From a bacterium (GTDB taxonomy: Bacteria; Patescibacteriota; Minisyncoccia; Moranbacterales; UBA2206), in assembly GCA_030654225.1 (NCBI GenBank), contig JAURXY010000031.1, positions 1,431-65,430 on the forward strand: a DNA stretch of 64,000 bases, written 5' to 3'. Every line of letters starts with the position of its first letter. Positions within the stretch are counted from its first letter, which is position 1. The position numbers and the translations under genes are program-made. The notes under the pieces were generated by a model, which was given only the letters and a program-made list of their open reading frames with translations, searched no databases and was not told where the DNA came from. Of the stretch, positions 2,963-57,462 are shown one piece after another.

Positions 2963-3619
2963 TTATTCTAAAATATATTCTTCCAATTCTTTCTTCTCCC
3001 TAAAATAATCCGCGTTATTTTTTATATACTTTTCATATTCGCCAAAATTATTATCAAACTGTCCCAAAATTATTTCCTTATTGCACAACTTTCCATCTCT
3101 CTTCCCAGTATAATCCAAAAAGCTCGAATATGGCCAATCCTTTTCCAAGAACCCATGAATTTCGTGATTCGCATTCACATAAGCCGAAAGCAGAAGAAGA
3201 TATTCATTGGAGTTGATGTGAATGGATTTGAAAGGGCCCTGAAATAAAGATCCTGATCTTTCATGCTTAATATTAAAATATTTTGTATAGCTAGTGCCCA
3301 TCCTATGCATAAATTTTTCCACTCCCTTATTTTTTGATTGTTTCAGCATAAAATGATAATGATTAGGATTTAAACAATATGCCACTATTTCTACAAGAGG
3401 AGAAACAGAAGCTAAGCTTCGGGCTAGCCCGAAGCTTAGCTTCTGTTTCTCTTGCTTTTGTTTATCCCTTAAACTTCCAACTAATTTTTCATCATTAAAT
3501 TCATTCATCCCCAAAATAAACCTCTCATAATCTTTTCCACCCAAAAAAACCTCCCGCTTATCTACTCCGCGATTATATATGTGGTAATATTCGCCATTGG
3601 CAAATTCGGTTTTTCGCAT
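2963..3619 (-). CDS. IS200/IS605-like HUH (Y1) transposase / REP-associated tyrosine transposase (RAYT)-like protein
   Basis: 218 aa. Has YHIYNRG near the N-terminus and an HYHF (HUH) motif. Contains a 17-aa in-frame segment encoded by a perfect 52-bp palindrome. Confidence 0.55.
   Translation of the reverse strand: MRKTEFANGEYYHIYNRGVDKREVFLGGKDYERFILGMNEFNDEKLVGSLRDKQKQEKQKLSFGLARSLASVSPLVEIVAYCLNPNHYHFMLKQSKNKGVEKFMHRMGTSYTKYFNIKHERSGSLFQGPFKSIHINSNEYLLLLSAYVNANHEIHGFLEKDWPYSSFLDYTGKRDGKLCNKEIILGQFDNNFGEYEKYIKNNADYFREKKELEEYILE
3399..3450. repeat. perfect 52-bp palindrome (gagaaacagaagctaagcttcgggc ta gcccgaagcttagcttctgtttctc) inside the RAYT-like CDS
   Basis: Read directly from the sequence. 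The 25-bp arms are exact reverse complements around the central 'ta'. Confidence 0.9.
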
Positions 3620-3633
3620 TTAAATTTTATTTT

Positions 3634-5013: not shown

Positions 5014-6130
5014 TTATTTTTTACCCAAAAAATCATCCCATCCTTTCCAACCCTTATCTTGATAAGCATTATATGGCGAACTAGGAAGATCTGCGAATTC
5101 TTTATATCTTGATTTATAATCATCCTGACTAGTAAATCCAATTTCTCGTACTTTTTTTTGAGCTTCTTCGAAGGATAGAATCTTTTTTGTTGTTCGCATC
5201 TCTCTGCCAGTACCTAAAAAGTCTCCCCAATCTATCCATCCTTTATCTTTGTAAAATTTACTAGCATCGCCTGGAAGTCCAAAAACATTTTTATATCTCA
5301 ATCCATAATCTTTTACACTCTTGAATCCATATTCTCTAGCTTTTATTCTCGCTTCTCCAAAAGATAAAAGATGCTCTGCTTGTTGCTTCATTCTCTCTGT
5401 TCCTAAAAAATCCAGCCAGTCTATCCATCCTTCCTTTTTATAAGATTCGTTCGGATTGTATAAGAGTCCTGAAAAATCCTTGTATCTTGATTTATAATCC
5501 TCTACATTTTTAAATTTACATGCTCTCGCTTTTTCTCGAGATTTCTCAAAAGATAATCTCTCCTGTTCCATTCCTAAAAAATTAGTCCAATTTTTCCAAC
5601 CCTTATCTCGATAAGCATTGTTTGGTGCACTAGGAAGACCTGCGAATTCTTTATATCTTAATTTATAATCATCATAACTCTTAAGCCCAATCTCTCTTAC
5701 TTTTTTTTGAGCTTCTTCGAATGATAGAATCTTTTTTATTGTTCGCATCTCTCTGCCAGTACCTAAAAAATCCCCCCAATCTATCCATCCCTTATCTTTA
5801 TAAACTGTATTTGGATTTCTTGGAAGGCCTAGAGCTTTTTTATATCCATCCTGATAGTCTTGACTGCTGGTAAATTTAAGTTCTCTGGCTTTATTTCTAG
5901 CTTCATCAAAAGAAAAAAGCTGTTCTGATTTTTGCTTTTCTCTTTCCTTATTTAAAAAATCTGTCCAATCTGTCCAACCTGCATCCTTATAAGCATAATC
6001 TGGATGACTTGGAAGTCCTGAAAAAAATTTATATTTTTCTCTATAATCCTTCCTGCTGTTTATTCCCAAACTTTTAATTTTTTCTCGAGCATCATTAAAT
6101 GACAAAATATTTTCGGATTTTCTATATTCT
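5014..6130. repeat. intragenic tandem coding repeats (~190 bp unit; ~540-bp super-repeat duplicated, e.g. 5153-5230 vs 5693-5770 nearly identical)
   Basis: Near-identical DNA blocks 'tcttttttgttgttcgcatctctctgccagtacctaaaaa...ctatccatcc' occur 540 bp apart. Confidence 0.7.
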
Positions 6131-6867
6131 TTTTTTTCTCTTAATGACTCGTTTTCAACTCTTGGTCCATTCTCTAAAAAATCTTTCATCGCCATTTTCC
6201 ATTTTTCCTTATCTCCTGGATAAATAAGTTCAGAAAAAATTTCTTGCGGTAGATCTTTCAATTCTTCTTTGGACATTTCCAGATAATTTTTTGCCTCTTC
6301 AAATCCTCCTTCGAATTGATGGATAATAAATGTAGCATTTCCCTCTTCATTGTTAATCAAAGCTAATTTATTTATCTTTTGAATTATAAAAGCGTAGTAA
6401 CTCAGTTGTCGCATCATATTAGGAGAATTCTCTCCCTCGATAACATTGTAATCTAAATTCATTTCACTCAAAAGTTCTACCAGAAATTGACTTCGTGGAA
6501 TGATTTTTTTTGGATCGATCCCTTCTCCGCTACCAATTATAATTTCTCCGGAATCAGGTGGCAAAATAACTTCATTTGTTTTCAAAAATTCTCCTGGTAA
6601 TTTCAAAAATGTTTTTTGGGCAATTTGATCATCCACAAAAGATTTAACATTAAAATGATAGGTAGGAGAAGTTCCTCTTGTCTGAATAACTTCCAAATAT
6701 TTTTCTGCACCCAAAAGAACTGCTACTCTTCTCAGATCTGTGTTTGTTTTTAATAATTCTTGTATTCCTTTATTTGTTTCTGCACGAAAAATCGTAGCTT
6801 CAGCTGATTCTTTTTCTGGAACTTTTATTTGGTTAACATTTGGAAAATTTGAAAAATGTTCAGGCAT
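5014..6867 (-). CDS. tandem-repeat protein of unknown function (six ~62-aa repeats with consensus LSFEEA..KARE.GFKS..DY...YK.F.GLP..P...YKDKGW.DW.DFLG) inserted between murG and murC
   Basis: 617 aa. An N-terminal ~250-aa unique domain is followed by 6 repeats. Repeats 2-3 and 5-6 are near-identical at the DNA level. Confidence 0.5.
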   Translation of the reverse strand: MPEHFSNFPNVNQIKVPEKESAEATIFRAETNKGIQELLKTNTDLRRVAVLLGAEKYLEVIQTRGTSPTYHFNVKSFVDDQIAQKTFLKLPGEFLKTNEVILPPDSGEIIIGSGEGIDPKKIIPRSQFLVELLSEMNLDYNVIEGENSPNMMRQLSYYAFIIQKINKLALINNEEGNATFIIHQFEGGFEEAKNYLEMSKEELKDLPQEIFSELIYPGDKEKWKMAMKDFLENGPRVENESLREKKEYRKSENILSFNDAREKIKSLGINSRKDYREKYKFFSGLPSHPDYAYKDAGWTDWTDFLNKEREKQKSEQLFSFDEARNKARELKFTSSQDYQDGYKKALGLPRNPNTVYKDKGWIDWGDFLGTGREMRTIKKILSFEEAQKKVREIGLKSYDDYKLRYKEFAGLPSAPNNAYRDKGWKNWTNFLGMEQERLSFEKSREKARACKFKNVEDYKSRYKDFSGLLYNPNESYKKEGWIDWLDFLGTERMKQQAEHLLSFGEARIKAREYGFKSVKDYGLRYKNVFGLPGDASKFYKDKGWIDWGDFLGTGREMRTTKKILSFEEAQKKVREIGFTSQDDYKSRYKEFADLPSSPYNAYQDKGWKGWDDFLGKK

Positions 6868-13354: not shown

Positions 13355-13390
13355 AAAAACCATCCCGAGTACTCGGGATGGTTTTTATTT
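13355..13390. terminator. bidirectional rho-independent terminator (aaaaaaccatcccgagtactcgggatggttttt)
   Basis: Perfect 11-bp stem flanked by an A-run and a T-run. Lies between convergent genes. Confidence 0.6.
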
Positions 13391-47660: not shown

Positions 47661-47979
47661 GCTAAAAAACTCACCCAGGAAACGAACTCGTTCTAGGGAG
47701 ATACACAAAAACAGGGTTTTATCCCTGCCTTGTGTTATGTCTAAACTATATCAAAGTTTCACAATCTTTTGCGATTAGTCCAAAGTCTAAACGTGCACTG
47801 TACTAAAATACACTTCAGATTCATATAGCTCTGATTGGCATTGGCGTTCTCTTAAATAAATTCAAGAGTCGACCGCCGGACAATAACCAATGCATCCCAT
47901 TATATCTTTTGACGGATATAACTTTAAATTAGGACACATCTCTGGATTATTGTCAAATTCTCCCTAGAAAGGAGGTGAT
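47661..47979. repeat. 16S rRNA 3' trailer adjacent to 16S (contains processing-stem strand tcacaatcttttgcgattagtcc at 47759-47781); paralogue of 17481-17794
   Basis: Blockwise similarity to 17481-17794. The 22-nt terminal core is identical. Confidence 0.6.
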
Positions 47980-49036
47980 CCATCGACAGCTTCCGCTACC
48001 GATGCCTTGTTACGACTTCACCCTTATCATCGATCCCACCCTGGCCCCCGATTTAATTCGGGGTCTTCCGGTGTTACCGACTCTCTTGGTGTGACGGGCG
48101 GTGAGTACAAGATCCGAGAACGTATTCACCGTGACATGGCTGATTCACGATTACTAGTGATTCCGGCTTCATGAGGTCGAGTTGCAGACCTCAATCCGAA
48201 CTGAGACCATCTTTATGGGATTAGCTCCATCTTGCGATTTGGCTACCCTTTGTAATGGCCATTGTAGCACGTGTGTAGCCCAGGGCGTCAAAGGGCCACG
48301 CTGATCTGACGTCATCCCCGCCTTCCTCCCAGAACTTTACTCATAAAAACTTTATGAACAAAGTTCTGGGCAGTCTCGTGTGACATAATAACACACGATA
48401 GGGGTTGCGCTCGTTTCCTGACTTAACAGAACATCTTACGACACGAGCTGACGACGACCGTGCAACGCCTGCCTAGCACCCTCGAAGGCTTGTACATTTC
48501 TGTACAATGCAGCTAGGTTTCAAGCCCTGGTGAGGTTCCTCGCTTGTCGTCGAATTAAACCACATGCTCCACCACTTGTGCGGATCCCCGTCTATTCCTT
48601 TGAGTTTTAAGCTTGCGCTCGTACTTCCCAGGCGGCATACTTAACGCGTTAGCTACGACACTACGAGGGTCGATTCTCGTAATACCAAGTATGCATCGTT
48701 TACGGCGTGGACTACTGGGGTATCTAATCCCATTCGCTACCCACGCTTTCGCATCTCAGCGTCAGAAAAGTGCCAATCAAATGCCTTCGCCTTTGGTGTT
48801 CCGTATGATATCAACGCATTTCACTGCTACACCATACGTTCCATTGATCTCTCACTTCCTCAAGATATACCGTTTCAAATGCAGTTTTCGAGTTGAGCTC
48901 GAAGATTTGACATCTGACTAATATATCCGCCTACATGCTCTTTACGCCCAATAAATCCGGATAACGCTTGAGGTCTCTGTATTACCGCTGCTGCTGGCAC
49001 AGAGTTAGCAACCTCTTATTCGCAAGGTACCGTCAT

Positions 49037-49190
49037 TGGTCGCTTCTCGCTTCGCTCAAAAGCGCCCCGCAGACTATCACAGACTTGACGCAGAATTTCG
49101 CAGACAAAAACTTTTCAGTTTCGTCCGCGTCTTTCCGCGTTTCGTCCGCGTGTTTCCGCGGGTCGTTTCGAACAGAGTGAGAAACGACCA
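49037..49190 (-). repeat. ~154-nt insertion element in 16S V3 region (between E. coli ~440 and ~480), copy 1
   Basis: ~97% identical to 49527-49678. Internal tandem gtttcgtccgcgtgtttccgc repeats and terminal hairpins. Confidence 0.7.
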
Positions 49191-49526
49191 TTCTTCCCTT
49201 ACAAAAGCGGTTTACAACCCAAGGGTCTTCTTCCCGCACGCGGCGTCGCTCCATCAGGCTTTCGCCCATTGTGGAATATTCTCGACTGCAGCCACCCGTA
49301 GGTGTTTGGACAGTGTCTCAGTTCCAATGTTGGGGATCACGCTCTCACGCCCCCTACCCGTCATAGCCTTGGTAAGCCATTACCTTACCAACTAGCTGAT
49401 AGGACACAGGCCGCTCCTCAAGCGATAAATCTTTACTCCGTAGAGATTATCGTGTATTATTCCAGATTTCTCTGGATTATTCACGACTTGAGGGTACGTT
49501 CCTATGTATTACTAACCCGTTTGCCG

Positions 49527-49678
49527 TGGTCGCTTCTCGCTTCGCTCGACCGCCCCGCAGACTATCGCAGACTTGACGCAGAATTTCGCAGACAAAAACT
49601 TTTTAGTTTCGTCCGCGTGTTTCCGCGTTTCGTCCGCGTGTTTCCGCGGGTCGTTTCGAACAGAGTGAGAAACGACCA
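49527..49678 (-). repeat. ~152-nt insertion element in 16S V1 region (between E. coli ~65 and ~100), copy 2
   Basis: Same element as 49037-49190, in a different 16S helix. Confidence 0.7.
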
Positions 49679-49698
49679 CTCGACTTGCATGCCTTATC

Positions 49699-49738
<40 letters not shown>

Positions 49739-49831
49739 AAAAAATGTTTAGAATTTTACTTCTAAATATATAAAGAAAAAATTTCTTTTATTTGAATAGA
49801 CTCAATTGTTGTCCCGATAAAATCGGGACGA

Positions 49832-49855: not shown

Positions 49856-50475
49856 TAATTAAATTGTTAAGGTCAAATCAATAACTGCAAAGTAATGATG
49901 GGAAACATTGTTTCCCGTAACTTCTTTGAAGTTATTTTTCTTGGTAATCAGGATTCGCTCCCTCAGGTAAGGGCACTTGCCCGCACGGTCAAAGGAAAGG
50001 AGCTTATACTTACCTGATTACCAAGAAAAATTTTAGCAGTTGAAAAACATTTGAGAGCAATGTTGCCCGACTACAAAAAAGTAGCCCTTCGACTAGAAAC
50101 GGCAGTGCACGCTCCCCAGTCTTATTTCTCAACTGCTAAACTATATAAACGAGGCGACAGATGCCACTCTTCCTTCATGGCTAGAGCAAGCCGGTAAATC
50201 TCGCCCTGTATTAATTTAGAAGGCACGAGTACAAACTGACATCTGTCGCGAAAAAAATAAATGAACTAAAAAGACACATCTCCGCGCACCAATATAATAA
50301 TGCACAAAGATGTATCTTTGTTTCACCCTTGTCGCGTGATCCGAAGGATTTTACGCGACGAATTTTAAAGTAATTTTTTGAGTTAAATTATTGTGCCTTT
50401 TTGGACTTAAATAATTATATGCAACTCGTACTATCTATATTAAACAACTTTATAAATCCTGTCAATAGCTAAATA

Positions 50476-57406: not shown

Positions 57407-57462
57407 CACCTTCTTTTTTTTCTCCCTCTCCTTTATAAGGAGAGGGCTGGGGTGAGGTAGTT

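Follow-up and report, generated by a model that had tools for sequence, protein, structure and literature searches.

A RAYT-like endonuclease gene of Patescibacteria carrying an in-frame, REPIN-like palindrome, probably a copy of its own hairpin

The 64-kb stretch of DNA analysed here (hereafter the window) encodes on its minus strand, at positions 2963-3619, a protein of 218 aa that we assign, based on its open reading frame, Pfam match, AlphaFold model, fold matches and homologues, to the Y1 (HUH) single-strand DNA endonucleases, and more precisely to a RAYT/IS200-like clade of Patescibacteria. The reading frame runs through a perfect palindrome of 52 bp. Enzymes of the RAYT-like Y1 HUH class bind hairpins in single-stranded DNA and cut next to them, and the explanation in which we have good confidence is that this gene holds, in a permissive, structurally loose loop of roughly 30 aa between helix alphaB and the strand that leads to the HUH motif, an in-frame REPIN-like doublet of its own cognate hairpin.

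The palindrome and the protein that spans it

The palindrome lies at positions 3400-3451 and consists of two arms of 26 nt (3400-3425 and 3426-3451) that are 100% complementary, with a spacer of 0. The initial annotation had recognized a perfect 52-bp palindrome, which holds, and had placed it at 3399-3450, one position off; its description as 25+2+25 denotes the same object as 26+26, because the central TA is self-complementary. Palindrome and arm searches, together with folding, describe it as a REPIN-like doublet in which a 25-nt hairpin unit is repeated head to head, with members of the same element family in two other loci, L093 and L084. Unit A (GAGAAACAGAAGCTAAGCTTCGGGC, 3400-3424, plus strand) contains a small hairpin, GAAGCT-A-AGCTTC, at 3408-3420, and unit B (3427-3451, minus strand) is its inverted copy, with the small hairpin at 3431-3443. 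The doublet structure of a REPIN is thus present (2 x 25 nt, with a GAAGCT-N-AGCTTC core in each), its repetition being seen across related genomes only. As single-stranded DNA the region is predicted to fold with -29.4 kcal/mol (z = -9.6 versus shuffles), and its G+C content is 50%, versus 32.6% for the rest of the gene. It is translated in frame as E57-S73 (EKQKLSFGLARSLASVS, aa 57-73), 13 residues ahead of H87-Y-H89, and hence just upstream of the HUH motif, as had been noted from the sequence. Canonical REPs need a GTAG tag 5' of the hairpin; neither GTAG nor CTAC occurs in 3400-3451, and GTAG is found inside the stem in a few relatives (L018, L030), most relatives being without it.

Within the window the element stands by itself. 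A search with the 25-nt arm at up to 3 mismatches found no third place in the 64 kb, just the two arms (shuffles with a match, 0 of 100), and weaker copies of a 17-nt unit, again at up to 3 mismatches over the 64-kb window, were limited to the same two arms. The spacers on either side of the gene are short, 14 bp to the gene for a MurC-type ligase (3620-3633), without the upstream flanking hairpin that most relatives have, and 10 bp to the gene for a P-type ATPase (2953-2962), without a downstream one. Since the window has neither flanking hairpins nor a second copy of the unit in 64 kb, its tie to a repeat population rests on other genomes: further copies of the palindrome or its half-sites, as suggested for a search at the outset, are absent from the window, and the same element was found in L084 and L093. 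Exact-sequence look-ups with the RAYT-like and MurC proteins of the window matched no record.

Other palindromic sequences were seen along the way. At 13355-13386 a perfect 32-bp palindrome (AAAAACCATCCCGAGTACTCGGGATGGTTTTT) lies between two convergent ORFs and looks like a bidirectional terminator; a TCCCGAG..CTCGGGA palindrome at 7575-7604 of L001 resembles it. A hairpin stem formed by CCCTCTCC and GGAGAGGG occurs at 57424-57446 of the window and in two Moranbacteria loci (L053, 2872-2894 and 11525-11547; L062, 12351-12373), and is unrelated to the RAYT hairpins.

The encoded protein matches the Pfam family Y1_Tnp (PF01797) with 30.8 bits (gathering cut-off 23), the aligned part covering aa 76-150 only. 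When the loop at aa 46-72 is deleted, the score rises to 35.4 bits, and the alignment then spans the profile from end to end (positions 6-120 of 121). The NCBIfam equivalog for RAYT, NF047646, behaves in the same way, with 27.4 bits for the intact protein and 31.1 bits without the loop, both far below the cut-off of 80, and a full-length match (7-146 of 146) once the loop is removed. Because its removal makes both profile matches end to end, the segment aa 46-72 is an insertion with respect to canonical Y1/RAYT proteins. The check suggested at the outset, whether the 17 aa encoded by the palindrome are inserted, thus gives a yes against these canonical profiles and a no against close homologues, which all have a segment of similar length, each with a different palindromic cassette.

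The AlphaFold model, built with 41 homologues, has a mean pLDDT of 83.7, and its sole weak internal stretch is aa 50-70, with values below 50 at aa 63-69, the part encoded by the palindrome. The best fold match of this model in the PDB is 4ER8_A, the E. coli RAYT-REP complex (E 4.5e-7, TM 0.69 normalised to target); 2XMA, 2VJV and 2A6M are matched with the same probability of 1.00, the ISDra2 and IS608 transposases ranking after 4ER8. A PDB sequence search with the family profile gave nothing, even at E<=10, and the structural link is thus one of predicted fold only. The HUH motif H87-Y88-H89 (3353-3361, minus strand) and the catalytic tyrosine with the metal ligands, Y147-x3-N151-x3-H155 (YVNANHEIH; 3155-3181, minus strand), were read from the sequence, and H87, H89, Y147, N151 and H155 are invariant in the 41 sequences. 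They reproduce the pattern of the E. coli RAYT active site (H59/H61 and Y115/N119/H123; PMC3479197). The HUH/RAYT-like character first proposed for this gene is therefore borne out by the Pfam match, the best fold match and the invariant residues.

The palindrome falls within a hypervariable loop, aa 43-75 (3395-3493, minus strand), between helix 28-40 and strand 76-83. This loop has a similar length among homologues and no consensus in the alignment, contains the low-confidence part of the model, and forms the first of two sites for internal hairpins in the clade (site 1), occupied in 66 of 78 homologues. We also considered whether the variable loop might be diversity-generating or intein-like, and dropped the idea, as no feature supported it.

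Inheritance of the gene and variation of its hairpin

We found 4861 homologues at E<=1e-5, of about 210-250 aa, and those that carry a name all come from Moranbacteria, Parcubacteria or other Patescibacteria. The clade was sampled through 80 homologous loci from species-representative genomes, all of them metagenome assemblies, of which 78 with full-length genes were used for site counts. Perfect palindromes with arms of at least 9 nt are present in 67 of the 80 genes; shuffled genes contain one in 4.6% of cases, and stretches of equal size taken from other parts of the loci in 19.6%. When arms of 7 nt or more are counted, a hairpin occupies site 1 and/or a second site in 69 of the 78 full-length genes (88%), and just nine hairpins were found elsewhere in the coding sequences. 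Site 1 (nt ~150-260) lies ahead of the strand leading to the HUH motif, and site 2 (nt ~430-500) after the metal ligand H155; among 68 scored hairpins, 55 begin between nt 150 and 200 of the coding sequence and 11 between nt 430 and 500. What had been considered as a possible hit on one gene is instead a clade-wide architecture. The stems are GC-rich and near-perfect (4 mismatches in 1029 pairs, one of them G.T, without an excess of G.T), many are only 10-12 bp long, and their sequences vary from genome to genome. The longest elements seen are in L037, where a 64-nt palindrome (379-442) situated 5.5 kb upstream of the gene is nearly identical to a 62-nt one inside it (nt 193-254).

This recurrence bears on whether the palindrome could be an assembly artefact such as a fold-back chimera, a reading whose probability we regard as negligible. 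Chimeric reads can yield palindromes, and the contig of one orthologue (L022) ends beside such a doublet; yet the frame runs through the palindrome into conserved protein on both sides, the same feature is present in 67 independent assemblies, and the reading frame is intact in 77 of the 80 homologous loci.

On the minus strand of the window the gene order is ftsW, murG, a gene for an INT_rpt repeat protein, the MurC-type ligase gene, the RAYT-like gene and a gene for a P-type cation ATPase. The initial annotation had put the gene between murC and ATPase/murB, which is right for the ligase and the ATPase and wrong for murB, as none is adjacent. It had also judged this location unusual for a conserved cluster, an impression that comparison reverses, the position after murC being conserved in six related genomes: the order MurC-type ligase, RAYT-like gene, P-type ATPase is kept in L001, L004, L011, L018, L022 and L030, with neighbouring ATPases 56-93% identical to that of the window. 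Because of this conserved position, the gene is an old, vertically inherited resident, not an intruder. Its syntenic orthologues each have a different hairpin at the same site. Between the window and L001, for instance, the flanking coding DNA is about 85% identical by eye, and the two palindromes share little beyond a GGCTAGCC centre. Likewise, the proteins nearest to that of the window outside the loop (85-86% identical) have wholly different loop peptides, and the window's KLSFG..RSLAS loop type recurs in more distant members (70-77% identical). Among the homologues compared, none was found to carry the same peptide without palindromic DNA, a finding that would have spoken against the initial annotation. 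Judging from these comparisons, the loop cassette is turning over rapidly in a vertically inherited gene.

The synteny also argues against an active IS200/IS605-type transposase gene whose palindrome would be the end of an element left by a nested or abortive insertion. Such a reading, which we hold to be very unlikely, would agree with the hairpins found in relatives just outside both gene ends, as in IS200/IS605, and with the two or three family members present in some genomes. It does not fit the window, which has no end hairpins in its spacers of 14 and 10 bp and only one copy in 64 kb, nor a position that is syntenic across six genomes beside proteins 56-93% identical to those of the window; moreover, paralogues of one genome have their own hairpin families and are not identical copies, and the active site follows the RAYT pattern, Y-x3-N-x3-H.

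Several features of these loci deserve mention in their own right. In L022 (1-455) a close syntenic orthologue lacks aa 1-93, with 86% identity over aa 94-218 and an ATPase 92.6% identical; the break falls at a different 18+4+18 doublet (of the GACCCTTAGGGTC type), 43 nt short of where a 150-kb contig ends; either the gene is disrupted or the assembly broke off at a repeat. The orthologue in L001 (1889-2557) has one in-frame stop (ILG*FD), which, in an assembly with a coverage of ~1.1x, may be a sequencing error or mark a pseudogene. The INT_rpt gene of the window (5014-6867, minus strand) encodes a 617-aa protein made of INT_rpt (PF14882) repeats and lies between murG and the MurC-type ligase gene; as murG and murC are adjacent in L001 and L011, it looks like a genome-specific insertion into the cell-wall cluster. 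Farther away, the 16S rRNA gene (47968-49744, minus strand) is 1777 nt long versus the 1533 positions of the Rfam model, the extra ~240 nt suggesting one or more insertions, and just upstream of it a perfect 19-nt inverted repeat (49934-49952 and 50013-50031, 60 nt apart) in an ORF-free region may be a processing stem or a leader structure.

Relation of the internal hairpin to its gene

In most loci hairpins are also found around the gene, at a distance of 15-40 nt upstream of its start codon and of 3-15 nt downstream of its stop codon, the same layout as in REPtrons and IS200/IS605. The internal hairpin resembles the flanking ones of its own locus: the exact stretch that they share has a median of 16-17 nt, versus 6 nt with the flanks of other loci, and at least 10 nt are common to the internal hairpin and its own flanks in 63-71% of loci, versus 2.8% for the flanks of others. 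Internal and flanking hairpins occur together in 64 of 78 loci; the window gene belongs to a minority (5 of 78) with internal hairpins only. The correspondence extends to paralogues, as three of them in one genome (L005, L009, L024) each have a separate hairpin family, inside and outside the gene, those of L009 and L024 differing by a compensated stem change. Family members number two or three in some genomes and one in the window, further hairpin copies are scattered within the clade loci, and the loops of the upstream, internal and downstream copies do not share one constant orientation.

Copies of such elements were also found outside RAYT-like genes. A metagenome scan for the 18-nt centre of the palindrome returned 12 matches, only one of which, L084, is a true relative; the other 11 lie on unrelated contigs of higher G+C (47-68%), without wider similarity, and were rejected. 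L084 (35% G+C) has an identical 40-nt core in an intergenic position that adjoins dxs, with no RAYT-like gene nearby. In L093, the locus of homologue P0010, a 22+2+22 variant of the palindrome occupies site 1 of the RAYT-like gene, with a T>G change compensated by A>C, and a 34-nt doublet of the same family (5583-5616) is inserted in frame near the N-terminus of ybeY, which adjoins the RAYT-like gene, where it encodes KRSFGPARSFA. In L010 a 43-nt doublet (3582-3624) lies in frame in an Elp3-like radical-SAM gene and encodes GGSTSIMEVEPP, a peptide that homologue P0002 and several others also have in the RAYT loop. Given these copies in L084, ybeY of L093 and L010, the elements are dispersed, REPIN-like and able to sit in frame. 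Symmetry past the shared core is seen in the RAYT-like genes (GAGAAA/TTTCTC in the window, CTC/GAG in L093), not in the intergenic copy of L084.

The in-frame doublets in two unrelated genes and the intergenic copy of L084 would also agree with a selfish palindromic element, akin to the RPEs of Rickettsia, that landed in frame in a tolerant loop and has no enzyme-substrate relation to the host protein, and intragenic REPs and RPEs are documented elsewhere (PMC3733652). This account, which seems to us quite improbable, leaves unexplained the 88% occupancy of two fixed loops in one gene family, the match of the internal copy to the flanks of its own gene, even among the paralogues of one genome, and the covariation with one face of a protein helix that is described below.

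A hairpin selected mainly at the RNA level, with the 26-bp mRNA stem as an RNase III-type processing site or as a ribosome obstacle limiting expression of the nuclease, is unlikely too, if slightly less so, and could coexist with the cognate-hairpin explanation. The stem is transcribed and very stable, and the E. coli RAYT has been described as auto-inhibited and strongly down-regulated (PMC3479197). The stems show no tolerance of G.U, with one G.T among 4 mismatches in 1029 pairs, a comparison of RNA- and DNA-level selection that has little power because they are almost mismatch-free. The same hairpins are found beyond the transcript, on both sides of the gene and with flipped loops, and many relatives have stems of only 10-12 bp. 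Nor does any Rfam family exceed its threshold at 3400-3451, where the sub-threshold matches are all to generic long hairpins (microRNA precursors and similar).

The strongest indirect support for the in-gene hairpin being the enzyme's substrate comes from covariation with the helix alphaC region (aa 99-125; 3245-3325, minus strand). We grouped the loop peptides of 121 proteins into families and compared pairs of proteins whose remaining sequence was matched for identity. Pairs from the same family were 11 points more identical in aa 99-125, an excess reached by 0 of 300 label permutations; elsewhere the excess amounted to 2 to 5 points (N-terminal part, HUH region and aa 126-146); the tyrosine helix gave 0 and the C-terminal part -3. 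It peaks at H105, T109, K113 and I117, which form one face of the modelled helix 99-118. A second, independent test on GTDB loci, with hairpin families defined from the DNA by pairwise sharing of at least 11 or at least 13 nt, gave +0.10 for alphaC and values within +/-0.025 elsewhere. Clustering of the hairpins by shared 9-mers with single linkage was uninformative, as 49 of 60 loci fell into one cluster. In the E. coli RAYT, alphaC occupies the REP hairpin's minor groove, and its base-specific contacts are those of R78, K82 and R97 (PMC3479197). With the offset of +28 to +32 given by the active sites of the two proteins, the covarying face falls on these contact positions. The covariation points indirectly to the hairpin inside the gene as what the enzyme recognizes, and could in part reflect residual phylogeny or linked recombination tracts. 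The early suggestion that the gene may carry its own hairpin substrate is well sustained: hairpins at the same spot match the flanks of their own gene, and the hairpin family covaries with the predicted contact helix.

Proposed mechanism and comparison with known systems

How such an arrangement might arise can be outlined as follows. The enzyme would recognize the extruded hairpin in single-stranded DNA and cut beside it, as RAYTs and IS200/IS605 transposases do, and re-insertion or conversion with a preference for cis would place new hairpin copies mostly close to the gene; the REPs of Marinomonas are reported to show a marked physical association with tnpA-REP (PMC8266576). Two loops alone would tolerate an in-frame, stop-free insert, so that copies would persist only there, and the perfect arms would reflect either correction templated by the hairpin or renewal at frequent intervals. 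The window gene would have lost its flanking copies, leaving the internal doublet as the sole copy in 64 kb. A neutral account, local hopping combined with two permissive loops, is enough to explain where the copies lie and requires no function of the internal one.

The internal copy may nevertheless serve as a protected master or, acting through DNA or RNA, hold back the expression of its own gene. We therefore also put forward, as a tentative proposal to which we would give less than even chances, that the in-gene hairpin is a selected cis-element, the enzymes of this clade keeping a master copy of their substrate in their own reading frame, as RepC of pT181 does with its origin; specificity (the alphaC face, perhaps with the loop peptide beside the surface that binds the hairpin) and substrate would then be inherited, switched and possibly self-regulated as one cassette. 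If the master-copy reading were true, each sequenced gene of the clade, with its 4861 homologues, would be a natural enzyme-substrate pair.

RAYT/REP systems, the end hairpins of IS200/IS605 and in-frame palindromic repeats are all known already, and the function of RAYTs and the spread of REPs and REPINs have been unsettled for some 15 years, partly because the pairing of enzyme and substrate is inferred. In the present clade the presumed substrate is inside the enzyme gene, and therefore every homologue (at E<=1e-5), even on a short metagenomic contig, provides a linked protein-hairpin pair. The covariation points to positions 105, 109, 113 and 117 as candidate determinants of specificity, and an HUH recognition code would become directly testable, which would be useful for sequence-specific HUH tags. 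The finding would place a RAYT/REP-like system in the Patescibacteria, with their streamlined genomes, and the conservation of the gene beside a cell-wall cluster across species would argue for a host-level or tightly self-limited role, not plain parasitism. In the full-text literature that we could search, whose coverage is incomplete, we found nothing tying RAYT or REP to Patescibacteria, nor REPs inside a RAYT reading frame, which is absence of evidence only.

Known systems close to this one include the RAYT/TnpA-REP systems (REPtrons) of Proteobacteria. They share with the clade described here the Y1 HUH fold, the Y-x3-N-x3-H metal site, vertical inheritance and a usually low copy number, as well as cognate GC-rich hairpins that are flanking and dispersed, often as inverted doublets, and diverged enzyme-hairpin pairs that coexist in one genome. 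Yet REPINs have been described as extragenic and flanking (PMC5581495), whereas in the Patescibacteria clade a hairpin copy is part of the reading frame itself, in one or two loops of fixed position. The clade also differs in its hosts and in stems that are near-perfect palindromes without a 5' GTAG, the window protein scores below the NCBIfam cut-off for RAYT, and the window gene is without flanking copies. IS200/IS605 elements (TnpA of IS608 and ISDra2) belong to the same enzyme superfamily and have hairpins just inside or outside both gene ends, which are recognized as single-stranded DNA. They differ from the present genes, for which there is no sign of mobility (conserved synteny, no identical copies, no end hairpins in the window) and whose metal-ligand pattern is of the RAYT type; to our knowledge, these insertion sequences do not carry in-frame hairpins within their genes.

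The nearest functional parallel is found in rolling-circle plasmids of the pT181 family, in which the double-strand origin of RepC lies within the rep coding region and the encoded protein segment is dispensable (PMC5703833). In these plasmids, too, an HUH gene has its own hairpin cis-site in its reading frame, and the dispensable segment parallels the low-confidence loop of the RAYT-like protein. The pT181 site is, however, a plasmid replication origin, a single site without dispersed copies and served by another HUH family (Rep_trans), and no role in replication is suggested for the genes described here. RPEs and other intragenic REPs, finally, are in-frame short palindromic repeats that add 20-30 residues to proteins without destroying the genes (PMC3733652). 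They sit in assorted host genes without a link to a dedicated enzyme gene, whereas in the Patescibacteria genes described here the element keeps to a fixed site throughout a large clade, covaries with the protein and lies in the gene for what is presumed to be its own enzyme.
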